This document shows, one piece after another, positions 18,600-48,804 of a stretch of DNA of 64,000 bases (positions are counted from its first letter, which is position 1; each line of letters opens with the position of its first letter). Source of the DNA: an uncultured Hyphomicrobiales bacterium (lineage in GTDB: Bacteria > Pseudomonadota > Alphaproteobacteria > Reyranellales > JAQSWP01). Below the pieces are notes generated by a model. That model was given only the letters and a program-made list of their open reading frames with translations. It was not told the origin of the DNA and did no database searches. The DNA lies in contig CAYWLS010000016.1 in NCBI GenBank assembly GCA_964458605.1, forward strand, positions 29,620 to 93,619, given 5' to 3'. The position numbers and the translations under genes are program-made.

Positions 18600-18853
18600 G
18601 TCTTTCTCCTGTTGCGGCAGGAGGATAGGCCGCGTGCCGGGGAAAAGCTTTGCGAACAGGCCGCCCAAGCCCCGGTAATGGGTCGAATATTCCATAAAGA
18701 CGGTTCTTATTGGATAAATCGACCGAATCGAGCGCTGCGTCGGCAAAGAGTGGCCGCTGGGGCGGGCGCGGCCGCGACCCGGCGGGAACCGGCATGGCCG
18801 CCAAGCGCTCAAGCTAGAGCCGCCCGGTCCCGCCGCTCCCGCCCGAGGTTGTC

Positions 18854-22503: not shown

Positions 22504-24876
22504 CTAGACTTGCCCGGTTTCGCCGCTGACAGCGGCGGCGCGCAGGGGGCCGCGCAGGGTGAGATAGAGTCCGCCCACCAGGCCGATCGTGGTGGCCAGC
22601 ATCAGCGCCAGCCACAGCAGCGGCTTGGTGGCATGCAGCGACAGCGAGCCCATATAGCCGATCGCCACCGTCACCGCCGCCAGCACCGCCCAGGCGCTCC
22701 AGCGCGTGATGTCCGGCGCCGGCGGCTGGTCGCTGACCCGCTCGTCCTTCAGCCATTGCGCCAGTTCCTCGACCGAGCCCTTCTGCTGCTGCACGCCGCC
22801 CTCCAGCTCCATCTCCTTGGCGACCTCCTCGGCCTCCTTGGCGATGCGCCGATCGAGCCAGCGTTGCAGCAGACTCTTGCGGGCCGGCGCGGCCTCGACC
22901 CGCTCGACCGCTTCCACCCTCACCTGCAGCCTGGCGCGGCGGCCGGGCAGATAGTCGAAGCCGACCGCGGCGGCGGCCAGCGCCAGCCCCAGCAGGTCGA
23001 CCCAGAACGGGCTCTTGAAGATCAGCAGCCCGGCGGCCAAGGCGAACACCAGGCGCTGCAGCGGGTTGAGCGGGCGGTGGAAATAGCCCGCCAGCGCCGC
23101 CGTGGTCAGCACCATGCCGGCGCTGGCCACCAGGGTGGCGAGGACGATCTCCAGCGGCGTGCCGCGCATCAGCAGCGCCGGCTCGAACACGAACACCAGC
23201 GGCACGATGAAGGCGGCGACGCCCAGGCGCGAGGCCTCCACCATGGTCTTCATCGGGTTGGCGTTGGCCAGCCCGGCGGCGGCCACGGCGGCCAGCGCGG
23301 TGGGCGGGGTGATGTCCGACACCACGCCGTAATAGAAGGCGAACATGTGCGCGGCCATCTCCGGCACGCCGCTGGCCTTGAGGATCGGGATCACCGTGGC
23401 GACCATGGTGATGTAGACCGCCGAGGCGGTCAGCCCGGTGCCCAGGATCAGCGAGATCAGCGCGCCGATGATCAGGATCAGCCATAGCTGGTTCGACACC
23501 ATGTCGAGGATCAGCTGGGTGATCTGGAAGCTCAGGCCGGTAGCGAACATGGCGCCGATGATGATGCCGGCGCAGGCGCAGGTGGTCGACAGGCTGCAGC
23601 TCACCTTGGCGGTCACCTCGAGCGCCTCGCCGATGCGGCTGGGCGACAGCAAGGTGCGGCGCGACACGAAGGACAGCAGGAAGGTGCCCAGGCTGGTGAC
23701 CAGCGCCACCAGGATGATCGAGTAGCCCAGCGCCAGCAGCACCGCGATCAGCAGCAGCGGGATCGCCAGATAGCCGTTGGTGCGCATGATGCGCCAGGCA
23801 TTGGGCATGGCCTCCTTGGGCATGCGCGACAGGCCCTGCTTGCGCGCCTCGAAATGCACCGTCCAGTAGATCGAGAAGTAATAGAGAAAGGCCGGGATCG
23901 CCGCGGCGACGATCACCGTGACGTAGCTGACGCCCATGAACTCGGCCATCATGAACGCCACCGCGCCCATCACCGGCGGCATGATCGAGCCGCCCACCGC
24001 CGCCGCCGCCTCGACGCCGCCGGCGAAATGCGGGCGATAGCCCAGCCGGCGCATCATCGGGATGGTGAAGGCGCCGGTGGTCAGCACGTTGCTGACGCCC
24101 GAGCCCGACAGCATGCCGAACAGGCCCGAGGCGATGACGCCGGCCTTGGCCGGGCCGCCGACGCGATGGCCGAACACGGCGAAGGCGATGCGGGTGAAGA
24201 AGCTGCCGGCGCCGGCCGCCTGCAGCAGCCGGCCGAACAGCAGGAACAGCACGATGTACTGCGCCGCCACCAGCAGCGGGATGCCGAACACGCCGGCATC
24301 GCCCACCACCAGGGTCTGGATCAGCGCCTCCGGCTTGACCGGCGGGCCGTAGAAGATCCCGGGGAAGTGATTGGCGAACAACGCATGGCAGCAGAAGATG
24401 CCGGCCAGCACGATCATCGCCCAGCCGACGGTGCGGCGCACCGCCTCGCATACCAGGAAGATCAGCACCAGGCCGGCGGCATAGTCGCGCGGCGCCAGCC
24501 CGACATAGAGATCCTGCCAGGTATCGACGATCGACAGGTAGTAGACCATCAGCAGCGCGCAGGCCAGCACGCAGGCGCCGTCGAGCAGCGCCAGCGCCGA
24601 TCGCCACCGGCCGCCGGTGGCGGCGGGATTGAGCAGGAACACCAGGCTGATGGCGATCAGCAGGTGCATCGGCAGGAAGATGGCGTTGGTCGGCGGCCCG
24701 TAGATGCCGATATAGATGTGATAGAGGACCAGATAGACCGACAGCACCGTGACCAGGGTCAGTCGCGCGGTCTGCGGCCAGGATCGCGCCGTGCGGGCGG
24801 CGGCGCCCGCCGACGGGGCGGCCCCCAGGGGAGTAGCCCCCGGCCGCCCCGACGCCAGTTGCAGGATGCCCGACAC
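22504..24876 (-). CDS. TRAP transporter fused 4TM/12TM permease (TAXI-type), with a ~150-aa C-terminal extension
   Basis: 790 aa, highly hydrophobic and DctQ/DctM-like. It lies 18 nt downstream of a TAXI solute receptor gene. Confidence 0.85.
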   Translation of the reverse strand: MSGILQLASGRPGATPLGAAPSAGAAARTARSWPQTARLTLVTVLSVYLVLYHIYIGIYGPPTNAIFLPMHLLIAISLVFLLNPAATGGRWRSALALLDGACVLACALLMVYYLSIVDTWQDLYVGLAPRDYAAGLVLIFLVCEAVRRTVGWAMIVLAGIFCCHALFANHFPGIFYGPPVKPEALIQTLVVGDAGVFGIPLLVAAQYIVLFLLFGRLLQAAGAGSFFTRIAFAVFGHRVGGPAKAGVIASGLFGMLSGSGVSNVLTTGAFTIPMMRRLGYRPHFAGGVEAAAAVGGSIMPPVMGAVAFMMAEFMGVSYVTVIVAAAIPAFLYYFSIYWTVHFEARKQGLSRMPKEAMPNAWRIMRTNGYLAIPLLLIAVLLALGYSIILVALVTSLGTFLLSFVSRRTLLSPSRIGEALEVTAKVSCSLSTTCACAGIIIGAMFATGLSFQITQLILDMVSNQLWLILIIGALISLILGTGLTASAVYITMVATVIPILKASGVPEMAAHMFAFYYGVVSDITPPTALAAVAAAGLANANPMKTMVEASRLGVAAFIVPLVFVFEPALLMRGTPLEIVLATLVASAGMVLTTAALAGYFHRPLNPLQRLVFALAAGLLIFKSPFWVDLLGLALAAAAVGFDYLPGRRARLQVRVEAVERVEAAPARKSLLQRWLDRRIAKEAEEVAKEMELEGGVQQQKGSVEELAQWLKDERVSDQPPAPDITRWSAWAVLAAVTVAIGYMGSLSLHATKPLLWLALMLATTIGLVGGLYLTLRGPLRAAAVSGETGQV

Positions 24877-24894
24877 GGCGCCGCCCTCTTCGCG

Positions 24895-25860
24895 CTACTT
24901 GATCAGTCCGACTTCGCGATAGTACTTCTCGGCGCCGGGATGCAGCGGGATCTTGTTGCCGTCCAGCGCGCCCTTGGTATCCATCTCGTTGGCGCCGGCG
25001 AACAGGCCGTGGAACTCCTTGACCTGCTCGTTCATCAGCTTGGTGATCTTGTACACCAGATCGTCCGACAGCTTGGACGAGGCCACCAGCTGGTTGATCA
25101 GATAGGGCGTGTCGACGTCGTTGGGCATGCTCTTGTAGATGCCGCCCTTGAGCGTGCGCATGGTGACGCCGGGCAGCAGCGCCATCATCTTCTCGCCCGC
25201 GGCCTTGTCGAAGCTCAGCACCCGGAAGCCCGGCGCGCGATCCAGCTCCATCATCGGCCCGTAGGGCGCCGGACCGGAGAAGAACGCCACGTCGACCTGG
25301 CCGTCCTGGAACGCCTGGCTGAGATTCTGGTAGCCGGCCGTGTTCAGCACGCCGCCGGCCTTGGTGATGTCCTCCGGCGTGACGCCGTAGGAGGCCAGCG
25401 CCGCCACGTTGAGCGCGTAGAAGGTCGAAGCCTTGGTGCCGAGCCACACCTTGTACGGCTTGGTCTTGAGGTCGGCCAGGCTCTTGATGTCGGACTTCTC
25501 CTGCACCACCACCATGAAATAGGCGCCGTACAGGCTCATGACGTGACGCAGGTTCTCGGTCTTGACGCCCAGCCCGCCCTCGCCGTTGCGCAGCTGGTTG
25601 GTCTGGTAGGTATAGGCCAGGCCCATCTCCGCGTCGCCCTTGTCGATGCGGATCAGCGTCTGCTCGGTCGGCCCCGCCAGGGTCGAGGCGCGCACGCCCG
25701 GGATGTTCTTGTTGATCAGCTCGGCCAGCTTGGCGCCGAACACCGGATAGGTGCCGGCCAGGCCCGAACCGATGCGCAGGAATTCTTCGGCCCGCGCGCC
25801 GACGCTGACGCCGAAGGCGGTGGCTGCCACCAGCAGCACGGCAACGAGTTTACGCAGCAT
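24895..25860 (-). CDS. TAXI-family TRAP transporter solute-binding protein
   Basis: Signal peptide, then FLRIGSGLAGTYPVFGAKLAELINKNIPGVRAS...GPTEQTLIRIDKGDAEMGLAY, typical of TAXI/Imp receptors. AAGGAGG lies 5 nt upstream of the ATG. Confidence 0.85.
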   Translation of the reverse strand: MLRKLVAVLLVAATAFGVSVGARAEEFLRIGSGLAGTYPVFGAKLAELINKNIPGVRASTLAGPTEQTLIRIDKGDAEMGLAYTYQTNQLRNGEGGLGVKTENLRHVMSLYGAYFMVVVQEKSDIKSLADLKTKPYKVWLGTKASTFYALNVAALASYGVTPEDITKAGGVLNTAGYQNLSQAFQDGQVDVAFFSGPAPYGPMMELDRAPGFRVLSFDKAAGEKMMALLPGVTMRTLKGGIYKSMPNDVDTPYLINQLVASSKLSDDLVYKITKLMNEQVKEFHGLFAGANEMDTKGALDGNKIPLHPGAEKYYREVGLIK

Positions 25861-26018
25861 CTCGACCTCCTTGTCCTGTTTGCTCTTTCCTTGTCATGCC
25901 TCTGCGGGCGCTTGGCGCTGGCGCGCAGCGACGACGGTACGGAGCGCGGCACACCCCTTCCAATACAAATTTCTCATCACTCCATTGGCTCCGTAAATCA
26001 CTGCCCCGTGCCCTTGCG

Positions 26019-26642
26019 TCACGGCGGTTGCAGCATGGCGAAGACATCCGTCAGCCGCGTGTACAGGCCGCGGCCGGAAATCCGGCCGACCGCGTCGAGC
26101 GCCGCGCCGTCGACGTTGAAGTCGGCGTCGACCAGCCCGTCGCGGTAGTGGAAATGCACCACCTCGCCCACGATCATGGTGTTGGGCTTGCGCCCCAGCT
26201 TCAGGATGTGCAGCGCCTTGCATTCGAAGCTGGCCGGGCACTCGGCCAGGCGCGGCGGCGCCACCTTGAGCGACGGCGCGGTGCGCAGCCCGGCCGCTTC
26301 GATCTCGCTGCGACCCGGCGCCAGGCTGGCGGCGCATCGGTTCATCTTTTCGGCCATGGCGCGGCCGACGATATTGACCACGAATTCGCCGCCGGCCTCG
26401 ATGTTGCGCACCGTGTCCTTCATGACCGGCGCAGCGGTCGTAGCACCGGCGCGCGGCGCCACCGAGATCATCAGTATCGGCGGATCGACGCCCACCATGT
26501 TGAAGAAGCTGAACGGCGCGGCATTGACCACGCCGCCGCCCATTGTCGTCACCAGCGCGATCGGCCGCGGCACCACCGTGCTGGCGACCAGACGATATTG
26601 CTGGTCGGGCGCCAGGCGGGCCGGGTCGAAATCGGCCGCCAC
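26019..26642 (-). CDS. flavin reductase-domain protein (FMN-binding split barrel)
   Basis: VVPRPIALVTTMGGGVVNAAPFSFFNMVGVDPPILMISV is the typical PF01613-like N-terminal pattern. Confidence 0.8.
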   Translation of the reverse strand: MAADFDPARLAPDQQYRLVASTVVPRPIALVTTMGGGVVNAAPFSFFNMVGVDPPILMISVAPRAGATTAAPVMKDTVRNIEAGGEFVVNIVGRAMAEKMNRCAASLAPGRSEIEAAGLRTAPSLKVAPPRLAECPASFECKALHILKLGRKPNTMIVGEVVHFHYRDGLVDADFNVDGAALDAVGRISGRGLYTRLTDVFAMLQPP

Positions 26643-26646
26643 CGGA

Positions 26647-28113
26647 TCAGCCTTTCATCTCGGCCGCCAGCTTGACCAGCGCCGGCTTGAGGATCTTGCC
26701 CGAGGAATTCTTCGGCATGTCGTCGACGAAGAAGATGCGCTTGGGCGCCTTGTAGGGCGCCAGCTTGGCGCGGCACAGCGCGATCAGCTCGTCGGCCGGC
26801 ACCGGCGTCTTGACGACGACGAAAGCCGCCACCTCCTCGCCCATCTCCGGCGACGGCAGCCCGACCACCGCAGCTTCCATCACCTGAGCATGGTTCAACA
26901 ACGTTTCCTCGATCTCGTTGGGATAGATGTTGACGCCGCCCCTGATGATCATGTCCTTGCGGCGGCCCTTGAGGAACAGATAGCCCTCCTCGTTCAGGGT
27001 GCCGAGATCGCCGGGATAGAACCAGCCGTCCTTGAACATCTCCGCCGTTGCCGCCGGATCGCCGAAGAACTCGGTGGCGCAGCCGGGGCTGCGATAGCGC
27101 AGCAGGCCGGTCTCCCCCGCCGGCAGCGATCTGCCGTTGTCGTCCACCACCTGCACTTCGATGGCGAACATGCAACGGCCGACCGAGTCGCCGAACCGCG
27201 CCTGGTCGGGCGGCGTCAGCATGGAGACGCCGCCGCCCTCGGTGGTGGCGTACATCTCGTAGAAATGCGGCGTGATCTTCTGCCTGATGGCACGCCGTTC
27301 CTCGGCGTGCAGCGGCGAGCCGCTGGACAGCAGCATGGTCAGCGACGGCATCAGCAGTCCCTCGCCCGCGTCCAGCGCCAGCAGGCGGCGCAGCAGGGTC
27401 GGCACCAGGAACAGATGCGTCGCCTGGCGCTGGCGCACCTCCTCGATCAGCTCCTCCGGCCGGTAGGGCGGCGGGAACATGATCACGGTGCCGCCGCAGA
27501 ACAGCTGCGACAGGGCGAAGGTGCGGCCGCCGCCGAAATAGATCGGCGTGGCCGAGACGTAACGCGACTGCGCGTTCAGCCCCATGTTGATCCAGTGGGT
27601 CCAGAAGCGGCGCTGGAACTGCTGGTGCGTCACCAGCGGGCCCTTGGCCATGCCGGTGGTGCCGGAGGACAGCGACAGCAGGAACGGCAGGGCGTCGCCG
27701 TCGGCCAGTTCTTGCAGCGGCGCCGCCGCGGCCACGCCGCGCTGCCACTTCTCGTCGCAGCGCAGCGCCGGGGCCACGTCGTTCCACGCCGCGCCGGGCT
27801 CGAGGATCACGCGCTTGGCCTTGAAGTGCTGCGCGATGCGTTCCTGCTCGCCCACCGTCCAGCGGCAATCCATCGGCAGCACGATGGCGCCCAGCGCGGC
27901 CAGCGCGAAGATACTGACCAGATGGGTCGCCGTGTCGTCCAGCGCCAGGCCGATCACCTCGCCGCGCCCGATGCCCTGGCTGGCCAGCCAGCCGGCAGTG
28001 CGGCGCACCAGCCCGTCGAGATCGCGATAAAGGACGGTTTCGGCGCCGGTGACCAGCGCCGGATGCAGCGGGCGCGACTGCGCCAGGATGCGGAGGGAAC
28101 CGGCGAGGTTCAT
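26647..28113 (-). CDS. AMP-dependent acyl-CoA synthetase/ligase
   Basis: Met323 of ORF 26647..29079 (MNLAGSLRILAQ...). Motifs LSLSSGTTGMAKG, YATTEGG, GWFYPGDLG, GRRKDMIIRGGVNIYPNEIE, PKNSSGKILK. The start lies 2 nt after the upstream stop. Confidence 0.9.
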   Translation of the reverse strand: MNLAGSLRILAQSRPLHPALVTGAETVLYRDLDGLVRRTAGWLASQGIGRGEVIGLALDDTATHLVSIFALAALGAIVLPMDCRWTVGEQERIAQHFKAKRVILEPGAAWNDVAPALRCDEKWQRGVAAAAPLQELADGDALPFLLSLSSGTTGMAKGPLVTHQQFQRRFWTHWINMGLNAQSRYVSATPIYFGGGRTFALSQLFCGGTVIMFPPPYRPEELIEEVRQRQATHLFLVPTLLRRLLALDAGEGLLMPSLTMLLSSGSPLHAEERRAIRQKITPHFYEMYATTEGGGVSMLTPPDQARFGDSVGRCMFAIEVQVVDDNGRSLPAGETGLLRYRSPGCATEFFGDPAATAEMFKDGWFYPGDLGTLNEEGYLFLKGRRKDMIIRGGVNIYPNEIEETLLNHAQVMEAAVVGLPSPEMGEEVAAFVVVKTPVPADELIALCRAKLAPYKAPKRIFFVDDMPKNSSGKILKPALVKLAAEMKG

Positions 28114-28115
28114 GG

Positions 28116-28982
28116 CTACTTGATCGGCAGCTTGTAGATGCGGATGGCGTTGTCGCGCAGGAACTTGCGCTTGGCGGCGTCGGGAATGCCCAGCGCCTCG
28201 ATCTCGGCGCGGGTGCGCTCGAAACCCAGCACCGGGAAGTCGGTGCCGAACAGCACCTTGTCCTGGCCGAAGCTCTTGATGTAGTGGACGAAGCTCTGCG
28301 GCCAGTATTTCGGCGCATGGGCGTCGGAGCCGATATAGACGTTCTTGTGCTTCCACGCCATGGCGATCATCTCGTCGGTCCAGGGAATGCCGACATGGAT
28401 GCCGATCAGGATCAGCTCGGGGAAATCGCAGGCCACGTCGTCCAGCGTGATCGGCCGGCCGACGCTGCGGCGCGGATAGTCGGGCGCGTAGATCATCGAC
28501 TGGCCGACCTGCAACTGGATCGGCACGCCCAGCTCCACGCATTTGGCGTAGAACGGATAGTAGCGCGCATGGTTGGGCGCCAGTTCGAACCAGTGCGGAT
28601 AGGAATGCGCGCCGACGAAGCCCATGTCCTTGACCGCGCGCTCCAGCGCCCGCACCCCGTCCATGCCCTCGGTGGGATCGACGCCGGCCAGGCCATAGAA
28701 GCGCTGCGGATACTGCTTCACAGCCCGCTCCACCAGCTCGTAAGGCAGGTGGTAGCAGGAGGGATGGCCGATCGGCCCGTTCTTCGAGGCGATCAGGAAG
28801 GCGCGCTCGATGCCGGCCGCATCCATGCGCTTGAGCATCTCTTCGAGCGACACGCCGCCCATGGTGTTGTCGTCGACCTTCATCTTGCCCTGGTAGAACG
28901 CCTTGCGGTTCTTGGGCCGGTACTGCCCGACCTCCTCGGTGAAGATGTTGACCACGACGTCGATGGCCTTGATGTCGTACAT
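28116..28982 (-). CDS. amidohydrolase_2 (ACMSD/LigI/LigJ-type TIM-barrel) family protein
   Basis: Met307 of ORF 28116..29900; 288 aa. The C-terminal LFGTDFP and IGIHVG motifs fit COG2159-type enzymes. The usual N-terminal HxH appears replaced (IDVVVNIF). Confidence 0.7.
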   Translation of the reverse strand: MYDIKAIDVVVNIFTEEVGQYRPKNRKAFYQGKMKVDDNTMGGVSLEEMLKRMDAAGIERAFLIASKNGPIGHPSCYHLPYELVERAVKQYPQRFYGLAGVDPTEGMDGVRALERAVKDMGFVGAHSYPHWFELAPNHARYYPFYAKCVELGVPIQLQVGQSMIYAPDYPRRSVGRPITLDDVACDFPELILIGIHVGIPWTDEMIAMAWKHKNVYIGSDAHAPKYWPQSFVHYIKSFGQDKVLFGTDFPVLGFERTRAEIEALGIPDAAKRKFLRDNAIRIYKLPIK

Positions 28983-29002
28983 GACGCTGCCTTTCCCGCC
29001 CG

Positions 29003-30148
29003 CTACAGGCCGAGTTCGCGCGCGATGATGTCGCGCTGGATTTCGTTGGAGCCTTCGCCGAAGGAATAGAGCCGTGCATCGCGCCAGTAGCGCTGCATGT
29101 CGCTCTCGGCCGAATAGCCGGCGCTGGCCATGATCTGCATGCCGTGATCGGTGACGAATTGCAGGCATTCGGTCGCCTGCACCTTGGCCTGGGCGGCCTC
29201 GCGACGGCATGGCCGGCCGGTGCCGATCAGCCAGGCCAGATAGCGCATGGCGTGGCGGCTGGCATCGACCCGCATCTGCATGTCGACCAGCCGATGCTTG
29301 ATGGTCTGGAACGAACCGATCGGCCGGCCGAATTGCTGGCGCTCCCTGGCGTGGGCCAGCGCGGCATCGACCGCCGCCTGGGCGCAGCCGGTGATGGTGG
29401 CGGCCATGCTGGCGCGCGAATAATGCAGGGTCGACATCAGGTTGGGAAAGCCGCGGCCGCGTTCGCCCAGCACCGCCTGGTAGGGCACGAACACGTCGTC
29501 GAAGCCGATATCGAAGCTCGGCATGCAGTTGTTGCCGACCTTGGGCAGTTGCGTCATGGCAATGCCCTTGGCATCGCGCGGGATCAGCAGCATGGAGATG
29601 CCGCCGGCGCCCTTGCTGTCGGGCTCGGTGCGCACCGCCGCCAGCAAATAGTCGGCGCCGCCGGCATCGCTGATCCAGGTCTTGCGGCCGCGCACCTTCC
29701 AGCCGCCTTCGGTCTGCACGCCGCGCGTCGTGATGGCAGCGGCGTCGCTGCCGGCCTGCGGTTCGGTCAGTGCCAGCGCGATCAGGCATTTGCCTTCGAC
29801 CAGGCGCGGCAGGAACTCCCGCTTCTGCGCTTCGCTGCCATAGGTCAGGAACGACATGGCGCCGAAGCCGACCACGCGGTTGAAGATCGAGGCCACGCAA
29901 TAGCCGTGCTGCCCCAGCCGCTCCTGCGCCAGCGCCACGGTGGTCCAGTCCTGGCCGCTGCCGCCATATTCCTCCGGCACCGCCAGGCCGAAGAAGCCGG
30001 CCGCGCCCATCGCCGGCAGCAGGTCGTAGGGCGTGATGTGCCCGGCGTCGCGGCGCCGGATCTCGTCGGGCGGCGCGTGGCGCGCCATGAAGCGATCCAC
30101 CGTGTCGAGAATCTGGTTCTGCTGTTCGCTGAGCGCGAAATCCATCAC
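29003..30148 (-). CDS. acyl-CoA dehydrogenase
   Basis: 381 aa with ALTEPQAGSDAAA, and a C-terminal RLYSFGEGSNEIQRDIIAREL retaining the catalytic Glu position of the YEGT motif. Confidence 0.85.
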   Translation of the reverse strand: MMDFALSEQQNQILDTVDRFMARHAPPDEIRRRDAGHITPYDLLPAMGAAGFFGLAVPEEYGGSGQDWTTVALAQERLGQHGYCVASIFNRVVGFGAMSFLTYGSEAQKREFLPRLVEGKCLIALALTEPQAGSDAAAITTRGVQTEGGWKVRGRKTWISDAGGADYLLAAVRTEPDSKGAGGISMLLIPRDAKGIAMTQLPKVGNNCMPSFDIGFDDVFVPYQAVLGERGRGFPNLMSTLHYSRASMAATITGCAQAAVDAALAHARERQQFGRPIGSFQTIKHRLVDMQMRVDASRHAMRYLAWLIGTGRPCRREAAQAKVQATECLQFVTDHGMQIMASAGYSAESDMQRYWRDARLYSFGEGSNEIQRDIIARELGL

Positions 30149-30172
30149 CGCTGCGCCTTCACTGCTGGACTT

Positions 30173-31096
30173 TCACTGCTGGCCCTTCCAGGCGTCGAGG
30201 ATTTCGCCGGCCGTGGCGCTCCACACCAAGCCGCGCCCCTGGATGTGGTCCAGCGCCCTGGCCAGGGCGTGGATGCGATAGGGCTGGCCGGTGATCCACG
30301 GCCGCAGCGCCAGCGACATGATGCGCCCGCCCTGCTTGCCGGCCTCCTCGGTCAGCACGTCGAACTGGTCGATGAGCTGGTCGGCGAATTCCTGCTCGCT
30401 GTGGTGGTTGCGGATCAGGATGCTGAAATCGTCGATATCGGGCGAATGCGGCATCGAATAGAGCGTGCCGGACGACGTCTTCATCGCATATGGCATGTCG
30501 TCGTTGTCCCAGTCGCAGGTGTAGTCCAGGCCGCGCTGGCGCACCAGATCGAGCGTGGCGAAGGATTCGCCCTTGGCCGGCGACAGCCAGCCGCGCACCT
30601 TGCCGCCGCCGGCGTTCAGCACTGCGAGCGACCGGTCGATCAGCGCACCCTCGGCCGTCTGGTCGAGGCCGCTGTGATGCAGATGCGCCATGTCGGTGCC
30701 ATGGGCCATCACCTCCCAGTTGCGCTGCCGCACCTCCTGCAGCAGGGACGGATAGCGCTGCGCCACGGCGGCGTTGACGGCAGCGGTGGCCTTGAGCTGG
30801 CGCGCGTCGAGCTCGCGCATCAGGCGATAGATGCCGACCCGGTTGCCGTAGTCGCGCAAGGTGTAGTGGCGCAAATCGGGATAGGCCGTGACCATCGCGC
30901 CCGGCGGCGCGAACGGCTTGTTGCTCATGTCGAGCGGGAACCATTCCAGCGCCACCACGATCGACAGCGCGATGCGCGCGCCGCCCGGCCACTGCACGGG
31001 TTTGCGGGTATGCAGCATCGACCAGTCGTAGCGGTCGTGATCCATGCCGTAGCGGCGCTGGCGGTATTCGAGATAGTCCGGCGGCAGGCTGGTCAT
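30173..31096 (-). CDS. PuuE/CE4-like 'polysaccharide deacetylase' family hydrolase, paralogue B
   Basis: Met201 of ORF 30173..31696. RDYGNRVGIYRLM motif and ~307 aa. Its start overlaps the stop of paralogue A (ATGA at 31093-31096). Confidence 0.7.
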   Translation of the reverse strand: MTSLPPDYLEYRQRRYGMDHDRYDWSMLHTRKPVQWPGGARIALSIVVALEWFPLDMSNKPFAPPGAMVTAYPDLRHYTLRDYGNRVGIYRLMRELDARQLKATAAVNAAVAQRYPSLLQEVRQRNWEVMAHGTDMAHLHHSGLDQTAEGALIDRSLAVLNAGGGKVRGWLSPAKGESFATLDLVRQRGLDYTCDWDNDDMPYAMKTSSGTLYSMPHSPDIDDFSILIRNHHSEQEFADQLIDQFDVLTEEAGKQGGRIMSLALRPWITGQPYRIHALARALDHIQGRGLVWSATAGEILDAWKGQQ

Positions 31097-32010
31097 GCGG
31101 CCTCTCCCACCTTGTGGCCGGCGCGCTGGAACGCGTCGTAGTGATTGTCGATGAAGTGCCTGGCGATCTCGCGGCCGGTGGCGAACCACACCTTGTCGTG
31201 GCCGGCGATATAGGCCAGCGCTTCCTCGAACGCCTTGATGCGATAGGGCCAGCCCACCAGGTAGGGATGCAGCGGAATGCACATCACCGTGCCGGAGTGC
31301 TTGCCCTCCTCGTAGAGCTGGTCGAACTGGCGCCTGATGATCTCGCCATACTGGCGCGGTGCCACCAGGTTGACGTTGTAGGCGATGACGTCGTTCATCT
31401 CCAAGGAATACGGCAGGCTGATCAGCTTGCCCTGCTTGACCTTGAGCGGCGTCGGCTGGTCGTCGTGGAACAGGTCGCAGACATAGCTCAAGCCCATCTC
31501 CGCCACCAGATCCATGGTGCGGTCGGTGTAGGTCAGCGCCGGCGCCAGCCAGCCATCCAGCTTCTGGCCGGTATGGTCCCGGATGGTGTCGATGGAATCT
31601 TGAATGACCGCGCGCTCCTGCGCCTCGTCCATGTTCATCAGGTAGCGCGTGTTGTAGGTGCCGTGGCTGTAGAACTCCCAGCCCGCCTTGCTGCACGCCT
31701 CGATGATCTCGGGATGGTGCTGGCAGACCGCGACGTTGAGCGAGACGCTGCCGCGGATTCTGTGCTTCTCCATCGCCTCGAACATGCGCCAGAAGCCGGC
31801 GCGGTTGCCGTAGTCGCGATAGGAATAGCCGCTGACGTCGGGCGCCGGCCGGCCCCAGGCCGCGCGCGAGGGGTTGCGCGGCGGATCGAGCTCGTAGAAT
31901 TCGATGTTGGGCGCCACCCAGAAAGCCACCCGCGCGCCGTTGGGCCAGGCGATCCTGGGCCGCTGCTGGTTGTAGGGCAGGTAGTCGTACAGGCCGGGAT
32001 CGCGTTTCAC
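31093..32010 (-). CDS. PuuE/CE4-like 'polysaccharide deacetylase' family hydrolase, paralogue A
   Basis: ORF 31093..32025. I prefer the GTG at 32010 (AGGGAGG 5 nt upstream) over the TTG at 32025. RDYGNRAGFWRMF motif. Confidence 0.7.
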   Translation of the reverse strand: MKRDPGLYDYLPYNQQRPRIAWPNGARVAFWVAPNIEFYELDPPRNPSRAAWGRPAPDVSGYSYRDYGNRAGFWRMFEAMEKHRIRGSVSLNVAVCQHHPEIIEACSKAGWEFYSHGTYNTRYLMNMDEAQERAVIQDSIDTIRDHTGQKLDGWLAPALTYTDRTMDLVAEMGLSYVCDLFHDDQPTPLKVKQGKLISLPYSLEMNDVIAYNVNLVAPRQYGEIIRRQFDQLYEEGKHSGTVMCIPLHPYLVGWPYRIKAFEEALAYIAGHDKVWFATGREIARHFIDNHYDAFQRAGHKVGEAA

Positions 32011-32021
32011 GCCAACCTCCC

Positions 32022-32699
32022 TCAAGCGCCGGTCGGGTTGTATTGCTTCAGGTAGGCGAACACTTCGGACACCGGCAGCACGTCGGCGTATTTCAGCGCC
32101 ATGTCGTAGAGATTGGCGAAATGCGGACTCTCGTGCTTGTCGGCCGTGGTCTCCTCCGGAACGATGGTGCGGAACGAGCGCTGCAGGCTGTCGACCACCG
32201 TGGCGCGGACGCAGCCCGAGGTCGAGCCGCCGGTCACCACGATGGTGTCGACCTTGTGGAAGGTGAACAGCGAGCCGAGATTGGTCTCGAAGAAGGCCGA
32301 GGCCATGCGCTTGTTGATGACGATGTCGCGCTCGTAATCGACCTCGCAGCGTTCATCGATTTGTGAGCGCCGCGAGCCGACCTTGATGTTCTGCAGCGAA
32401 TCGGGCGTGTCGGTGCGGGTGCCCCAGGCGCCGGCATCCTCGCCCGACTGCATGTAGGCCACGTAAGTCCACACCACCGGGCATTTGTTGGCGCGGAACA
32501 GCCGGGCCAGCTCGTTGACGTATTCGATCTGCCTGGGGTCGGTCTCGTAGGCGGTGACGAACTCGCCCGGACGGGTATAGGCATTCTGCAGATCGACGTT
32601 GATCAGCGCCGGCTTGCGGCCGAAGCCGAAGCGGCGGCGCGTCGGGTTGGCCTTGACGGCTTCGTACAATTCGCGAGCGGTCTTGTTCGAGGTTTCCAC
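32022..32699 (-). CDS. isochorismatase-like cysteine hydrolase (amidase type)
   Basis: ORF 32022..32759. I prefer the GTG at 32699 (AAGGAGG 6 nt upstream). Catalytic D-K-C pattern: ALINVDLQNAY, VINKRMASAF, VTGGSTSGCVRATV. Confidence 0.8.
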   Translation of the reverse strand: METSNKTARELYEAVKANPTRRRFGFGRKPALINVDLQNAYTRPGEFVTAYETDPRQIEYVNELARLFRANKCPVVWTYVAYMQSGEDAGAWGTRTDTPDSLQNIKVGSRRSQIDERCEVDYERDIVINKRMASAFFETNLGSLFTFHKVDTIVVTGGSTSGCVRATVVDSLQRSFRTIVPEETTADKHESPHFANLYDMALKYADVLPVSEVFAYLKQYNPTGA

Positions 32700-32727
32700 G
32701 TCGTGCCTCCTTCGATTTGGATTGGCT

Positions 32728-33612
32728 TCAGTATCCCGCGCGACCGGCCTGCGGGACATCGTATTTTTCTTCCAGCGCCTGGACCTCCGCCATGCCCAGC
32801 AGGTCGAAGAATTCGCGGAAGCCTGCGACTTCGTTGACCAGCCCGGCGATCGTGCCGGTGTCCTTCAGGGTCTGCAGCACGTGGCTGGCGGCGCGGATCG
32901 CCGCCAGCACCACCCAGTTGGGGTAGATCACCAGCTTGAAACCCAGTTTCTCGATCTCGTCCTTGCCCAGGAACGGCGTCTTGCCGCTGGTCGCCATGTT
33001 GTAGAGCAGCGGCGCCTTGAGCCGCGGCGCGATCAGCTTCAGGTGCTGCGGGCCGGGCGATTCGACGAAGATCATGTCGGCGCCGGCCTCCTGGTAGGCC
33101 AGCGCCCGCTCGATCGCCGGCTCGAAGCCGTCGACGCCGATGGCATCGGTACGCGCGATCACGACGAAATCGGGGTCGAGGCGCGAATCCAGCGCGGCCT
33201 TGATCTTGGATACCATTTCCTGGGTCGGCACCAGTTGCTTGCCGGCCAGATGGCCGCAGCGCTTGGGCAGCACCTGGTCCTCCAGGTGCAGCGCCGCCAC
33301 GCCGGCGCGCTCATAGGCCTGCACGGTGCGGCGCACGTTGAGCACGCCGCCGTAGCCGTTGTCGGCATCGGCAATCAGCGGCAGGCCCGACGCCTCGACG
33401 ATGCGCTGGGCGTTGTCGGCCATCTCCGTCATCGTCAGCAGCCCGACATCGGGCATGCCCAGCCGCACCGCCGTCGTGCCCGCGCCGGTCATGTAGATCG
33501 CCTCGAAGCCGTGACGACGCACCAGCCGCGCGTTGAGCGCATCGGCCACGCCCGGCGCCATCACGGCGCCCGGACGGGCCAGGAGATTGCGGAGCTGGGT
33601 GGTCAGTTTCAT
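32728..33612 (-). CDS. isocitrate lyase / PEP mutase superfamily C-C lyase (methylisocitrate / 2,3-dimethylmalate lyase-like)
   Basis: Signature LPKRCGHLAGK (K-[KR]-C-G-H with the catalytic Cys), plus IADADNGYGG and IARTDA. Confidence 0.8.
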   Translation of the reverse strand: MKLTTQLRNLLARPGAVMAPGVADALNARLVRRHGFEAIYMTGAGTTAVRLGMPDVGLLTMTEMADNAQRIVEASGLPLIADADNGYGGVLNVRRTVQAYERAGVAALHLEDQVLPKRCGHLAGKQLVPTQEMVSKIKAALDSRLDPDFVVIARTDAIGVDGFEPAIERALAYQEAGADMIFVESPGPQHLKLIAPRLKAPLLYNMATSGKTPFLGKDEIEKLGFKLVIYPNWVVLAAIRAASHVLQTLKDTGTIAGLVNEVAGFREFFDLLGMAEVQALEEKYDVPQAGRAGY

Positions 33613-33622
33613 GCCAATGCCT

Positions 33623-34228
33623 TTAGGTCAGCCAGTCGAACTGGCGGTGATATTCGCGTTCGAAGGCGGCGATCTTCTCGCCGTAGCTCTGGGTCAGGCC
33701 GATCTCGTCGACGCCGCGCAGCAGGGCCTCGCGCCAGAAGGCATCGACCTTGAAGGCGATCTCCCGTCCGTCGACCGCCACCACGTTGCGTTCGAGATCG
33801 ACGGTCAGGGCGGTGCCGGGATGGCGCTCCAATGTGGCCATGATCGCCTTGACGGTATCGTGCGGCAGCACCACGGGCAGCACGCCGTTCTTGAAGCAGT
33901 TGTTGTGGAAGATCGGCCCGAAGCTGGGGCCGATGACGCAGCGGAAGCCGCAATCGTAGAGCGCGTAGACCGCGCCCTCGCGGGACGAGCCGCAGCCGAA
34001 ATTCTCGCCCGTCACCAGGATGCGCGCGCCCTTGTAGTCGGGCCGGTCGAGCACGAAGCCAGGCCGAGGACCGCCATCCTCGGCGCGGCGTTGGTCGTGG
34101 AACAGGAACTGGCCGTAGCCGCCCGAGCGCGGATTTTTCAGGAACCGCGCCGGGATGATCTGGTCGGTGTCGACATTGTCCTGGTCGAACGGCACCGCCA
34201 CCGCGGCGAGCTTGCGGAACGGTTCCAT
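33623..34228 (-). CDS. aconitase-family hydratase small subunit (LeuD-like)
   Basis: Met72 of ORF 33623..34441. Motifs VDTDQIIPARFL and GENFGCGSSREGAVYAL. Its start shares one base with the large-subunit stop (TGATG at 34226-34230). Confidence 0.85.
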   Translation of the reverse strand: MEPFRKLAAVAVPFDQDNVDTDQIIPARFLKNPRSGGYGQFLFHDQRRAEDGGPRPGFVLDRPDYKGARILVTGENFGCGSSREGAVYALYDCGFRCVIGPSFGPIFHNNCFKNGVLPVVLPHDTVKAIMATLERHPGTALTVDLERNVVAVDGREIAFKVDAFWREALLRGVDEIGLTQSYGEKIAAFEREYHRQFDWLT

Positions 34229-35637
34229 CAGCCCTGCCCTCCGCCGTTCAGCCGGCGCACGTCGGTCAGCCTGCCGGTGACGGCCGCCGCCGCCGCCATG
34301 GCCGGGCTCACCAGATGGGTGCGCGCGCCCGCGCCCTGCCGGCCGATGAAGTTGCGGTTGGACGTCGAAGCGCTGCGCTTGCCCTTGGCCACGATGTCGC
34401 CGTTCATGCCGACGCACATCGAGCAGCCCGGCTCGCGCCATTCGGCGCCGGCGTCGCGGAACACGCGGTCCAGGCCCTCGGCCTCGGCCTGGGCCTTGAC
34501 CAGGCCGGAGCCCGGCACGATCACGGTCGGCACCTTGACCTTGGCCGCCTTGAGGATGCCGGCGGCGATGCGCAGATCCTCGATGCGGCCGTTGGTGCAG
34601 GAGCCGATGAACACGATATCGACCGGCGTTTCGCTGAGCGGCGCGCCGGCGGCGAGGCCCATGTAGTCCAGCGCGGCTTTTATATGCTCGCGCCTGGTGG
34701 CATCGGGCTCGCGCGACGGATCGGGGATGGTGGCGGTGATCGGCAGCACGTCCTCGGGCGTGGTGCCCCAGGTCACCATCGGCGCGATGCTGGCGGCGTC
34801 GAGCGATACTTCTCTATCGAAGGTCGCGTCCGCGTCGCTGGGCAAGGTGCGCCAATAGGCCACGGCACGATCCCACTTCCCGTCCTGGGGCGCGAACGGC
34901 CGGCCATGCAGATATTGATAGACCGTGTCGTCGGGCGCGATCAGCCCGGCCTTGGCCCCCGCTTCGATCGACATGTTGCATACGGTGAGCCGCTGCTCGA
35001 CCGAAAAGCCGCGCACCGTCGAGCCGGCATATTCGACCACATAGCCCACCGCGCCGGCGGCGCCGATCTTGCCGATGATCGCCAGGATCACGTCCTTGGA
35101 CGCCACGCCGTCGGCCAGCCGGCCGTCGATCGTGATGCGCATGCGGCGGGGCCGCTCCTGCCACAGCGTCTGCGTCGCCATGACATGGGCGTTTTCCGAC
35201 TGGCCGATGCCGAAGGCGAAGGCGCCCAGCCCGCCATGGGTCGAGGTGTGGCTGTCGCTGCAGGTCATGAACAGGCCCGGCAGGGTGATGCCCTGCTCCG
35301 GACCGATGACGTGGACGATGCCCTGGCGCACGTCGCCGCGCGGGAAGACGTGGATGCCCGAGCCTTCCATGTTGCGGGCGAACTGCTCGACCATGCGCGA
35401 CATCTCGGGCGGCTGCTGGCCGGCCGTGGCGTCGCCCCGCGTCCAGACGTAGTGGTCGGGGGTGCCGAAGGTCTGACCGGGCCGCGCGATCTTCAGCCCG
35501 CGCTGACGCAGGGTCTCGAAGGCGTGGAACGTGCCGTCGTGCACGATGTTGCGATCGACGTAGAGCAGCGAGGGGCCGTCGGGCTGCTCGAGGATGACGT
35601 GACGCCGCCAGATCTTGTCGAACAGGGTGCTCGGCAT
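34228..35637 (-). CDS. aconitase-family hydratase large subunit (LeuC-like paralogue)
   Basis: Met35 of ORF 34228..35739. Fe-S cysteines lie in CSDSHT, GSCTNGR and GCSMCVGMN. The region that reads HEVTSPQAF in canonical LeuC (as I recall it) reads HDGTFHAF here. Confidence 0.85.
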   Translation of the reverse strand: MPSTLFDKIWRRHVILEQPDGPSLLYVDRNIVHDGTFHAFETLRQRGLKIARPGQTFGTPDHYVWTRGDATAGQQPPEMSRMVEQFARNMEGSGIHVFPRGDVRQGIVHVIGPEQGITLPGLFMTCSDSHTSTHGGLGAFAFGIGQSENAHVMATQTLWQERPRRMRITIDGRLADGVASKDVILAIIGKIGAAGAVGYVVEYAGSTVRGFSVEQRLTVCNMSIEAGAKAGLIAPDDTVYQYLHGRPFAPQDGKWDRAVAYWRTLPSDADATFDREVSLDAASIAPMVTWGTTPEDVLPITATIPDPSREPDATRREHIKAALDYMGLAAGAPLSETPVDIVFIGSCTNGRIEDLRIAAGILKAAKVKVPTVIVPGSGLVKAQAEAEGLDRVFRDAGAEWREPGCSMCVGMNGDIVAKGKRSASTSNRNFIGRQGAGARTHLVSPAMAAAAAVTGRLTDVRRLNGGGQG

Positions 35638-35703
35638 GTACCGCTTTCCGCTGGGCGTGAAAAACCGCGCGCCGGGAAAAACTAGGATAGCCGGCAGGCC
35701 GGA

Positions 35704-35719
35704 ACAATTATATAATTGT
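35704..35719. promoter_or_regulatory. perfect 16-bp palindrome, candidate LysR-type operator
   Basis: ACAATTAT|ATAATTGT lies in the 104-bp AT-rich region between the leuC-like start (35637) and the lysR start (35742), and contains a T-N11-A arrangement. Confidence 0.6.
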
Positions 35720-35741
35720 AATCTATTAATTGGAAACATTA

Positions 35742-36707
35742 ATGAAAAACATAACCATCAAGCAGTTGCGTGCCTTCATCGCGGTTTCGCGCGAGAAGAA
35801 CTTCACCCGCGCCGCCAGCCAGCTTGGCCTGTCGCAATCGGCGCTGACCATCGCGGTGCGCCAGCTCGAGCGCGAGATCAACCTCAAGCTGTTCGACCGC
35901 TCGACTCGGTCGGTGCAGCTCACCCCGCACGCCACCGCCTTCCTGCCCACCGCCGAGCGGCTGCTGGAGGACCTGTCGCGCGCGCTCGACGATTTGAGCG
36001 CCATCGCCGCGCGGCAGAAGGGCAACGTGGTGGTGGCCGCCACCGCCTCGTTCCTGTGCTCGGTGCTGGCGCCGACCGTGGCGGCGTTCTCGCGCAAATA
36101 TCCCGGCATCCACATCAAGCTGGTCAACACCCCGGAAAACCTGGCGCGCCGCGTGCTGGAGGAAGAGATCGATTTCGGCATCGCCAATGTCTGGCAGCCG
36201 GTACAGTCGCTGGAATCGCACCTGCTGCTGGAGGACCGCTTCGGCCTGGTGTGCCCTGCCAAGCATCCGCTGGCCAAGGCGGCGGGACAGCTGAGCTGGA
36301 GCGATCTGCGCCAGCAGCCGGTCGTCACCATGGCGCCCGGCACCTCGGTGCGCGACATCATGGACCGCCAGAAGACCGCTTCGGGCAATCTGCAAAGCCC
36401 GGTCTGCGAGGTCAGCAGCATCTTCGCGCTGGGCGCGCTGATCGAGAACAATGTCGGCATCGCCGTGCTGCCGGCCCTGGTGGCGCGCCAGGTGCTGTCG
36501 CGCAACCTGGTGTTCCGGCCGCTCAGCCGGCCGGTGATCAAGCGCGACCTGTCGATCGTCAAGCGGCGCGGCCGCAGCCTGACGCCGGCGGCGCTGGAGC
36601 TGATCCGCTCCATGACCATCGTGCTGGGCGAGATCGGGCGCGACCCGCATATCGACGTGCAACCGGCGGCGTCGCTGATGGCCGGGCTGGCCGGCGACGC
36701 GCCCTGA
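35742..36707 (+). CDS. LysR family transcriptional regulator
   Basis: MKNITIKQLRAFIAVSREKNFTRAASQLGLSQSALTIAVRQLE is the canonical LysR HTH. The ATG at 35742 is preferred over the TTG at 35730. Confidence 0.9.
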   Translation: MKNITIKQLRAFIAVSREKNFTRAASQLGLSQSALTIAVRQLEREINLKLFDRSTRSVQLTPHATAFLPTAERLLEDLSRALDDLSAIAARQKGNVVVAATASFLCSVLAPTVAAFSRKYPGIHIKLVNTPENLARRVLEEEIDFGIANVWQPVQSLESHLLLEDRFGLVCPAKHPLAKAAGQLSWSDLRQQPVVTMAPGTSVRDIMDRQKTASGNLQSPVCEVSSIFALGALIENNVGIAVLPALVARQVLSRNLVFRPLSRPVIKRDLSIVKRRGRSLTPAALELIRSMTIVLGEIGRDPHIDVQPAASLMAGLAGDAP

Positions 36708-36859
36708 ACGGCGCGCGCGCGATGCCGCACCGCAGCAGGCGGAGCCATGAGCGGGTCTCATTATTCCATTTAATTAATATATTAGATCAATACATCCGCC
36801 GTCGCTAAGATTGCGCCGCATTGCAACAAACCGACCGGCAGGAGGGTTCGAGCCCGGCG

Positions 36860-40058: not shown

Positions 40059-40095
40059 GCCGATTTCCCCTCGTCGCTTCCTACAGGAGACCGCA

Positions 40096-43658: not shown

Positions 43659-43864
43659 TGAAATCTCCCTGCCGCAGATGGCGGTTACGTTCGGGCCGCG
43701 ATGAGGCAAAGACAAATTGAAAATTCTCGCCAATCGATGCCGTTCGCGCATCAATCTACGCCATCGGCCATGCCACTGGCCACGCCGCCGGGCGCGGGCC
43801 GTTTCACCGCGCCGCCGCTTCGTATAGGCTGCCGCGATCGGTTCAAGCTCTTGAGGAGTCGTCC

Positions 43865-46574: not shown

Positions 46575-46614
46575 GCGGTGGGGCGCCGGCCAGCGCGGCC
46601 GGCTTAAAGCGCCT

Positions 46615-47157: not shown

Positions 47158-47181
47158 CTGGCGCCGCTCGCACCGAACACC

Positions 47182-47439: not shown

Positions 47440-47495
47440 ACCGTCGCCTTCACGTGCATGGCATCGCGCCGTCCAATCGCGGCGTGCACGGCGCT

Positions 47496-48761: not shown

Positions 48762-48804
48762 GATCGACTCTCTCTGATTCTGCGGAGACGGACCGTCCGA
48801 CTGG

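Follow-up and report, generated by a model that had tools for sequence, protein, structure and literature searches.

The window analysed here is a 64,000-nucleotide stretch of contig CAYWLS010000016.1 from an uncultured Hyphomicrobiales bacterium, with a G+C content of about 68%; the nearest genome in the species collection was a Reyranellales metagenome-assembled genome (MAG), with 84-95% protein identity over four genes. Listing and translation of the open reading frames (ORFs) gave twelve minus-strand genes from 35637 to 22504, and all twelve families were confirmed with Pfam and NCBIfam. In gene order these encode a LeuC-like and a LeuD-like protein, a PrpB-like lyase, an isochorismatase-like cysteine amidohydrolase, two PuuE-like paralogues (PuuE1 and PuuE2), an acyl-CoA dehydrogenase (ACAD), an amidohydrolase_2-fold protein, an ANL-family acyl-CoA ligase, a flavin reductase-like protein, a TAXI-family TRAP solute receptor, and a fused TRAP permease. 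The gene count, the junctions, the family names, the divergent LysR gene, and the perfect palindrome reported by a first-pass annotation of this DNA were all confirmed in the sequence. A survey of about 170 related loci, in which neighbourhood counts rest on our own tblastn thresholds, showed that the operon is a mosaic of three independently distributed modules and a swappable transporter: the amidase-PuuE1-PuuE2 trio (M1), the LeuCD hydratase with the lyase (M2), and the ACAD, amidohydrolase_2, and ANL proteins (M3). Such an operon may take up and break down a cyclic imide or a related compound, as discussed below.

From gene spacing alone, we inferred that the twelve genes are co-transcribed. 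The first ten are separated by no more than 28 nt, with three overlaps. In gene order, the first five junctions are a 1-nt overlap (TGATG, 34226-34230), 10 nt, 28 nt, a 4-nt overlap or 11 nt, and a 4-nt overlap (ATGA, 31093-31096), and the last six are gaps of 24, 20, 2, 4, 158, and 18 nt. The 28-nt gap between the lyase and the isochorismatase-like gene holds for the GTG start of the latter, which is the start called on identical public contigs; with an ATG start the two genes would instead overlap by 32 nt. A divergent LysR-type regulator gene (35743-36707, plus strand; Pfam HTH_1 and LysR_substrate) heads the array, and its product is 57% identical to the LysR at the equivalent position in a Mesorhizobium MAG (L093). 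The latter has the same MKNITIK N terminus, and the start is most likely ATG 35743 rather than the TTG 35730 of the ORF list. The 105-nt leuC-lysR intergenic region contains the perfect 16-bp palindrome ACAATTATATAATTGT (35704-35719), a candidate operator; the inverted-repeat search did not list this zero-loop palindrome, which is plain from the sequence itself. The best-scoring promoter-like site of the region, TTTCCA and TATAAT with an 18-nt spacer, lies on the minus (operon) strand at 35736-35707, and its -10 box is contained in the palindrome. A ATTAATTGG motif immediately upstream of the LysR start is common to the window (35720-35742) and L093 (6222-6250). A terminator scan found fewer sites than in shuffled controls and was uninformative.

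The isochorismatase-like gene of M1 (32022-32699 with the GTG start or 32022-32759 with the ATG start, minus strand; Pfam Isochorismatase) encodes a protein whose best solved relatives were N-carbamoylsarcosine amidase (2e-32) and the isochorismatase-family hydrolase 4l07 (8e-31), the latter presumably the maleamate amidase Ami. The Lys and Cys of its D-K-C triad were retained in 68 of 68 orthologues and the Asp in 67, the last showing an alignment gap at this position. The protein scored below the NCBIfam equivalog cutoffs of RutB, BiuH, and PncA. In the surveyed loci, its gene was always directly upstream of PuuE1, which in turn was always followed by PuuE2, mostly with overlapping stop and start codons.

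PuuE1 (31093-32010 or 31093-32025, minus strand; Pfam Polysacc_deac_1) and PuuE2 (30173-31096, minus strand) matched the PuuE model TIGR03212 at 149.7 and 121.6 bits, respectively, PuuE1 lying far under, and PuuE2 likewise below, the cutoff of 424.6. In PuuE, a Glu-His-Trp triad replaces the CE4 metal triad, together with a catalytic His259 (PMC11424739). The catalytic and pocket residues of PuuE and BpIH given there were then aligned with the window proteins and their relatives, with 1z7a as the numbering reference. N34, E36, H126, and H259 were invariant in PuuE1 and its 48 orthologues, which marks PuuE1 as a putative metal-independent CE4/PuuE-like cyclic amidohydrolase. The substitutions W130N, R167A, R261Y, Y164L, and G166P occurred in 47 or 48 of the 48 orthologues; the lone exception was at position 261, and W130 was Asn in all 48. 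Given its score far below the PuuE cutoff and the loss of W130, R167, and R261 of the allantoinase pocket, these data indicated that PuuE1 is not an allantoinase; it is probably a catalytic subunit with a pocket less polar than that of allantoinase. PuuE1 homologues of 75-84% identity abound in Alpha-, Beta-, and Gammaproteobacteria, and 3829 clusters of homologues were counted in public data at E <= 1e-30. The paralogue PuuE2 of the window carries Arg at the proposed catalytic His259, a residue kept in 27 of 28 relatives, and E36 and H126 are not constant among its orthologues, being replaced by Gln in 5 and by Asn in 18, respectively, so that PuuE2 is probably a non-catalytic, structural partner in the window lineage.

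In M2, the LeuC-like large subunit of an aconitase-family hydratase (34228-35637, minus strand; Pfam Aconitase, 532 bits) scored 626.6 bits against TIGR00170, above the cutoff of 560.25, and possesses the three Fe-S cysteines (GSCTNG and CSMC). The LeuD-like small subunit (33623-34228, minus strand), whose start overlaps the leuC stop by 1 nt, was above the TIGR00171 cutoff (200.9 versus 116.25 bits) but below that of the LeuD/DmdB family TIGR02087 (77.3 versus 108.95 bits). Both parts of the end module proposed in the first-pass annotation, a LeuCD-like hydratase and an ICL-family lyase, are present, yet the LeuCD is of the bacterial type, not the DmdA/DmdB of Eubacterium barkeri. The LeuC-like protein was 53.5% identical to Escherichia coli LeuC and 62-69% identical to nine of twelve cluster-linked LeuCs elsewhere, and homologous plasmid clusters carry their own LeuCD. 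This closer identity and the plasmid-borne copies argue for a dedicated paralogue rather than the housekeeping enzyme, and the earlier assignment of the LeuCD pair to the cluster agrees with them; the source-genome data are the 64-kb window, in which a second, housekeeping leuCD would not be visible. The annotated part of the window (12-46 kb) showed neither leuA nor leuB close to the operon. The PrpB-like lyase (32728-33612, minus strand; Pfam PEP_mutase, 160 bits) has the KRCGH motif and scored 299.4 bits against the prpB equivalog TIGR02317, under the cutoff of 354.4, indicating that it is a lyase of the ICL/PEP-mutase superfamily but not a PrpB equivalog. Its top solved match was 4iqd, deposited as carboxyvinyl-carboxyphosphonate phosphorylmutase, and it was about equidistant from 4iqd, petal death protein, 2-methylisocitrate lyase, and 2,3-dimethylmalate lyase.

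M3 begins with the ACAD (29003-30148, minus strand), in which three ACAD domains were found and the C-terminal catalytic Glu is present (FGEGSNEIQ); this Glu, the KRCGH motif, and the D-K-C triad, the last kept in 68 orthologues bar the one gap, had all been named in the first-pass annotation and are there. The ACAD reached no NCBIfam equivalog cutoff, its nearest solved proteins being ordinary short-chain ACADs and glutaryl-CoA dehydrogenase 3mpi. The amidohydrolase_2-fold protein (28116-28982, minus strand; Pfam Amidohydro_2, 162 bits; no NCBIfam match) is highly conserved, with orthologues of 69-95% identity (67-95% by tblastn) across Alpha- and Betaproteobacteria. In the window protein and 66 orthologues, the N-terminal HxH metal ligands are replaced by a conserved V-x-N (ID-V-V-N), while the downstream His and Asp ligands are retained; this family lacks the HxH expected of the metal-dependent ACMSD/LigI/LigJ group. 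Its function could not be read from solved structures, the sole close one being the uncharacterised BB4693 (3irs). With Arg at the proposed catalytic His of PuuE2 and no HxH in amidohydrolase_2, the earlier tally of four amide or ring hydrolases was an overcount. The ANL ligase (26647-28113, minus strand; Pfam AMP-binding and AMP-binding_C) is followed by the flavin reductase-like protein (26019-26642, minus strand; Pfam Flavin_Reduct), a lineage-specific addition that is absent between ANL and TAXI in a soil contig (L095) and occurred near amidohydrolase_2 in 3 of 48 loci. A two-component monooxygenase of ACAD and flavin reductase was considered and rejected, as the ACAD is closest to genuine short-chain ACADs and L095 has no reductase.

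A further M3 partner lies beyond the operon span given in the first-pass annotation (22504-35637). This is an α/β-fold protein (abh_c8; 42828-43754, minus strand), recognised by orthology to cluster-linked copies and 74% identical to the Oceanibacterium copy adjoining amidohydrolase_2. Its orthologues are within the operon in L095, L084, and L106 and near amidohydrolase_2 in 12 of 48 loci. The nucleophile elbow reads G-T-H-T-G in the window, and G-S-A-T-G also occurs among the orthologues in L005, L030, L084, and L095; neither form offers a Ser, Asp, or Cys nucleophile.

At the downstream end of the operon, the TAXI receptor (24895-25860, minus strand) and the fused TRAP permease (22504-24876, minus strand) scored above their cutoffs, with 173.6 bits for TIGR02122 (cutoff 84.35) and 569.4 bits for TIGR02123 (cutoff 320.65), respectively. 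The receptor was 75% identical to that at the equivalent position in L095. Its ligand could not be read from solved TAXI proteins, as these matched no better than 3e-24 and listed no ligands.

To define the modules, the survey was anchored at two genes. The amidohydrolase_2-anchored survey comprised 80 loci, with one genome per species, of which 48 had at least 6 kb on both sides, and partners were counted within 10 kb. An ANL-ligase orthologue was present in 40 of the 48 loci, usually adjacent, an ACAD orthologue (55-88% identity) was next to amidohydrolase_2 in 18, an isochorismatase-family protein was found in 23, LeuC in 11, and the PuuE pair in 4; the transporters varied among TctC, NMT1-type ABC, and TAXI-TRAP systems. 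Because ANL was frequent and the PuuE pair rare around amidohydrolase_2, the ACAD, amidohydrolase_2, and ANL genes were assigned to a module of their own. The PuuE1-anchored survey covered plasmids, genomes, and 80 metagenome contigs, and in 19 of its loci both flanks were 6 kb or longer. The isochorismatase-PuuE1-PuuE2 trio was complete in all 19 and in every other locus long enough, its carriers including Paraburkholderia, Rhodanobacter, Mesorhizobium, Comamonas, Sphingomonas, and Acidiphilium. Among the 19 loci, the trio was accompanied by LeuCD in 9, a PrpB-like lyase in 7, an Asp/Glu-racemase-family protein in 12, a TcuA/flavocytochrome-c-like flavoprotein in 5, ACAD in 6, a CoA ligase or transferase in 7, and a third PuuE paralogue in 8. 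Over the survey, MmgE/PrpD proteins were frequent as well, occurring in 18 loci, as were SnoaL-like proteins, in 19. TcuA-like dehydrogenases, MmgE/PrpD proteins, and CoA-transferases all represent partner classes acting on di- or tricarboxylates, and the best model for the CoA-transferase, where present, was succinate-glutarate CoA-transferase. Had the racemase-family partner been a maleate isomerase like NicE, the product of the trio would have been settled as maleate; this role was rejected because its solved relatives are allantoin/hydantoin racemases and it matched no maleate isomerase.

Dozens of metagenome contigs and unrelated genomes carry subsets of this gene set as neighbours, in line with the earlier view of a genuine catabolic unit. 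The single twelve-gene pathway of the first-pass annotation, however, was not sustained by the neighbourhood survey, and co-conservation of the genes held for the trio but not for the flavin reductase, missing from L095, or for M3, linked in 3 of the 19 loci. The closest arrangements illustrate how the modules combine. In L093, the order LysR, LeuC, LeuD, lyase, isochorismatase, PuuE1, PuuE2 is that of the window, and a TcuA-like flavoprotein, two racemase-like genes, and an ABC transporter follow where the window has ACAD, amidohydrolase_2, and ANL. L095, whose regulator-side end is not covered, holds the window gene set minus the flavin reductase in a different order, with abh_c8 inside the operon. 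M3 and M1 form one tight operon in L106 and in Comamonas endophytica (TctC, amidohydrolase_2, ANL, ACAD, abh_c8, isochorismatase, PuuE1, PuuE2), the latter without LeuCD. Oceanibacterium hippocampi (L005) resembles the window in LeuCD, lyase, ACAD, amidohydrolase_2, TAXI-TRAP, and ANL, and carries an ATP-dependent HyuB/HyuA of the hydantoinase/oxoprolinase family plus another isochorismatase subfamily at the position of the PuuE pair (3347-7128).

Exchange is also seen within M2. The LeuCD of the window is of the bacterial type, and those of Paraburkholderia, Burkholderia plantarii, and Rhodanobacter are of a short HacA/IPMI type (421 and 172 aa in Paraburkholderia); the short pair of Paraburkholderia and Rhodanobacter is archaeal-type. 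An Acidiphilium plasmid and Rubrivivax-type loci combine LeuCD with a CaiB-type CoA-transferase and an HMG-CoA-lyase-like enzyme and have no PrpB-like lyase; a Sphingomonas plasmid has both this pair and the PrpB-like lyase. Judged from the sequences, such swapping of proteins with the function kept is non-orthologous displacement. In a common variant (L092, 12554-14954; lake loci such as L118, L156, and L161), the cluster is extended by an allantoin-racemase-like protein and by a third PuuE paralogue that shares 45-52% identity with PuuE1; L092, the sole such locus with domain calls, also has a BiuH/RutB-like second amidase after the third PuuE, and SnoaL-like proteins. This variant hints at substrates in which two rings or amide groups can be hydrolysed.

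Taken together, we give about even chances to the reading that the operon serves to import and degrade a substituted cyclic imide or a closely related cyclic amide, probably carboxylated. Enzymes of the LeuCD family act on cis (maleate-type) 2-alkyl acids. From the genes present, the genes that travel together, and the catalytic residues kept, the steps were inferred as follows. The TAXI-TRAP system would import the compound, and a PuuE1/PuuE2 complex, with PuuE1 catalytic and PuuE2 a degenerate partner, would open the ring to a half-amide. The isochorismatase-like Cys hydrolase would then release the amide nitrogen as ammonia, leaving an alkyl- or carboxyalkyl-substituted maleate or succinate, which the LeuCD-type Fe-S hydratase would hydrate or isomerise, as a cis-unsaturated acid, to a substituted malate. 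The PrpB-like lyase would split the latter into a 2-oxo acid or glyoxylate and a carboxylic acid. ANL, ACAD, the HxH-less amidohydrolase_2, and abh_c8 would form a separate CoA-dependent module acting on a carboxylated side chain or on a saturated form, and the divergent LysR would control the operon through the palindrome overlapping the -10 box. M3 probably acts on the same molecule and not on the lyase product, because in Comamonas it shares one operon with M1 and no lyase is nearby. The order from imide to alkylmaleate or alkylsuccinate is favoured because PuuE-fold imidases are known, the amidase is as near to 4l07 as to N-carbamoylsarcosine amidase, the partners act on substituted di- and tricarboxylates, and LeuCD needs cis geometry; opening of a five-membered imide would give this geometry or the saturated form and thus fits LeuCD-family substrates. 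The general logic of the first-pass annotation, from uptake through ring opening, deamidation, and hydration to carbon-carbon cleavage, agrees with the co-travelling genes.

Several observations weigh against an imide as the substrate or against a single pathway. The nearest characterised relative of PuuE1 is an allantoinase (1z7a, 121 bits), with only 55 bits for the HpPgdA structure 3qbu, which alone represented the cyclic imidase group in this comparison. The racemase partner (12 of 19 loci) resembles allantoin/hydantoin racemase and hence favours a chiral ring, either a hydantoin or a saturated imide, and L005 carries, instead of the PuuE pair, HyuA/HyuB, a pairing typical of N-methylhydantoin metabolism. 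Moreover, amidohydrolase_2 and abh_c8 are without their usual catalytic residues, M3 is rarely linked to the trio (3 of 19 trio-anchored loci), and a 158-nt gap lies upstream of the TAXI gene. Some of these points would suit a hydantoin or ureide route, in which PuuE1/PuuE2 would be an allantoinase-like hydantoinase acting on a carboxylated 5-substituted hydantoin or an allantoin analogue, and the isochorismatase-like protein an N-carbamoyl amidohydrolase yielding NH3, CO2, and an amino acid to be deaminated before LeuCD and the lyase act. The closest characterised homologues of these enzymes and of the racemase partner, PuuE allantoinase, N-carbamoylsarcosine amidase, and allantoin/hydantoin racemase, do act on hydantoins or ureides, and besides the HyuA/HyuB replacement in L005, an NCS1 permease adjoins the cluster in L045 and L061, and many loci have the third PuuE paralogue, followed in L092 by the BiuH/RutB-like amidase. 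We nevertheless regard this route, the main rival and a serious one, as rather unlikely: PuuE1 reaches 150 bits against a cutoff of 425 and no longer has the allantoinase pocket residues W130, R167, and R261, the conserved partners of the trio include neither an aminotransferase nor an ammonia-lyase, and the LeuCD, PrpB-like lyase, TcuA-like flavoprotein, and PrpD-like partners act on polycarboxylates without an amino group. In addition, the amidase is equally similar to 4l07, the presumed maleamate amidase, and a saturated chiral imide would also explain the racemase and the TcuA-like dehydrogenase.

The module distributions themselves raise the question of chance juxtaposition of two or three unrelated pathways, namely the trio, the LeuCD-lyase unit, and a CoA-dependent acid unit with the transporter. 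Amidohydrolase_2 is linked to PuuE1 in only 4 of 48 loci, or in 3 of the 19 anchored at the trio, and the 158-nt gap precedes the transporter genes; but M1, M2, M3, and TAXI-TRAP recur together in L095 in a different gene order, M3 and M1 make one tight operon in Comamonas endophytica and L106, M1 and M2 lie in one LysR-controlled operon in L093, and the first ten genes are spaced by at most 28 nt with three overlaps, which together render mere chance highly improbable. A further rival is a CoA-dependent six-membered-ring route of the citrazinate/isonicotinate type, in which ANL would activate a dihydroxypyridine carboxylate, the ACAD would run in reverse to reduce the ring with electrons from the flavin reductase, and the PuuE pair would open the dioxopiperidine, so that deamidation would deliver a tricarboxylate to LeuCD and the lyase. 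This route would give each of the twelve genes a role and would accommodate the TcuA-like (tricarballylate dehydrogenase-like) partners of related clusters. An Aspergillus PuuE-fold imidase opens piperidine-2,6-dione (PMC9304392). In 19 loci the trio has SnoaL-like partners; SnoaL proteins are of the polyketide-cyclase class, and enzymes in this class open trihydroxypyridine rings (PMC9304392). Yet the flavin reductase is missing from L095, the closest full relative, most trio clusters have neither ANL ligase nor ACAD, and no molybdenum hydroxylase is nearby. Direct hydrolysis of citrazinate would, by our stereochemical reasoning, give trans-aconitate, which LeuCD-type enzymes are not expected to accept, and cis-aconitate would require no dedicated hydratase or lyase. 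The route as a whole is thus very improbable indeed, and the specific citrazinate analogy drawn in the first-pass annotation is not favoured.

Returning to the cyclic imide reading, chemical logic only points to one class of substrates, which we offer as quite improbable but specific: the trio and its partners could be a bacterial mineralisation route for monopyrrole imides from oxidised chlorophylls, hemes, and bilins, namely hematinic acid, dihydrohematinic imide, and methyl-ethyl- and methyl-vinyl-maleimide. Imide opening by PuuE1/PuuE2 and deamidation would give a methyl-substituted homoaconitate or a dialkylmaleate; hydration by LeuCD or a homoaconitase-type enzyme and PrpB-like cleavage would lead to pyruvate and glutarate or butyrate, and the acid would be activated by ANL or a succinate-glutarate-type CoA-transferase for oxidation by ACAD. 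The racemase-like and TcuA-like partners would handle saturated chiral imides of the ring-D type. If true, this would explain the frequency of the trio in lake, soil, and plant-associated bacteria.

Several parts of the operon have counterparts in known systems. A cyclic-imide-transforming pathway of an imidase and a half-amidase has reportedly been described biochemically in Blastobacter sp. A17p-4. Cyclic imides are hydrolysed by PuuE-fold enzymes (PMC11424739, PMC9304392), among them BpIH of the PuuE clade, which acts on glutarimides (PMC11424739), and HpPgdA is related to cyclic imidases including CIH of Pseudomonas putida YZ-26 and HxnM (PMC9304392). With the cyclic-imide pathway and HxnM-HxnN of Aspergillus nidulans nicotinate catabolism (PMC9304392), the window shares imide opening by a metal-independent CE4/PuuE fold followed by an amidase that forms ammonia and a dicarboxylate. 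It differs in its ring opener, a fixed paralogue pair with one degenerate member, in which PuuE1 resembles PuuE more closely than it does the HpPgdA structure, in using an isochorismatase-fold Cys hydrolase as the amidase, and in having both a LeuCD-lyase end module and a CoA module attached. The PuuE allantoinase and allantoin racemase of Pseudomonas and Klebsiella purine catabolism have in common with PuuE1 the fold and the metal-independent E-H...H residues, and related loci are often linked to an allantoin-racemase-like protein; however, the triad Trp and both pocket arginines are replaced in PuuE1 orthologues, PuuE1 is far under the equivalog cutoff, and the window has neither the racemase nor other ureide-pathway genes. 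NicF/Ami maleamate amidohydrolase of the nicotinate and nicotine pathways and the N-carbamoylsarcosine amidase of the creatinine pathway share with the window amidase the isochorismatase fold, the D-K-C triad, and action on small acids that end in an amide or ureido group, but with E of about 1e-31 the similarity is no more than moderate, neither nic nor creatinine genes lie beside the window amidase, and it is always adjacent or translationally coupled to the PuuE pair. Finally, a two-subunit aconitase-family hydratase followed by a short PrpB-like lyase splitting a substituted malate recalls dimethylmaleate hydratase (DmdAB) and 2,3-dimethylmalate lyase (Dml) from the nicotinate fermentation of Eubacterium barkeri and the PrpD/aconitase/PrpB end of the methylcitrate cycle. 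Here, the hydratase is of the bacterial LeuC/LeuD type, above the leuC/leuD cutoffs and below that of LeuD/DmdB, the lyase is below the prpB cutoff and equidistant from the dimethylmalate, methylisocitrate, and petal-death-protein lyases, and the upstream steps are hydrolytic and need no B12, unlike those of Eubacterium barkeri.

The families of the parts are thus already known, as is, biochemically, the two-step imide logic; what appears undescribed is the fixed trio, the pairing of two PuuE paralogues, and the attachment of LeuCD-lyase and CoA modules. The earlier statement that no characterised pathway has this gene complement accords with our finding neither a published assignment nor a description of the cluster in the full-text literature searched, which lacks most subscription journals, so that an earlier report is possible. 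The spread of the cluster over lakes, soils, rhizospheres, and plasmids of plant-associated bacteria, together with its conservation, points to an abundant natural nitrogen heterocycle with an uncharted bacterial fate. Enzymologically, an obligate pair of metal-independent CE4 paralogues with one degenerate member, an amidohydrolase_2 without metal ligands, and an α/β-fold protein without a nucleophile are puzzling. Once the substrate is identified, thousands of genes that at present bear the names polysaccharide deacetylase, isochorismatase, or 3-isopropylmalate dehydratase could be annotated.

Beside the operon, a plus-strand array downstream of LysR (36821-41127) encodes a second ANL ligase, an ABC ATPase, a permease, and an NMT1-type binding protein; its ABC components share 42-56% identity with transporters found beside the amidohydrolase_2-ANL module of other genomes. 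A FAD aromatic-ring-hydroxylase-like monooxygenase gene (41146-42816, minus strand; PRK06126, 703 bits) starts 11 nt after the abh_c8 gene. On the other side, 252 nt downstream of the TRAP permease gene, a 371-aa protein (orf371; 21136-22251, minus strand) has no Pfam match and belongs to the NCBIfam Rv3169 family (265 bits), and further on lie an FMO/Baeyer-Villiger-like flavoprotein (19506-21047, minus strand) and a divergent 877-aa E1/transketolase-like protein (16218-18851, minus strand), which scored 174 bits against the aceE model with a cutoff of 860. The FAD monooxygenase, orf371, and the FMO-like flavoprotein were rejected as pathway parts, none being a conserved neighbour elsewhere. 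A tRNA-Phe gene (49408-49483, minus strand) was found near the downstream end of a low-GC stretch at 46000-50000 (0.60-0.61 versus about 0.68), which may be an integrated element.

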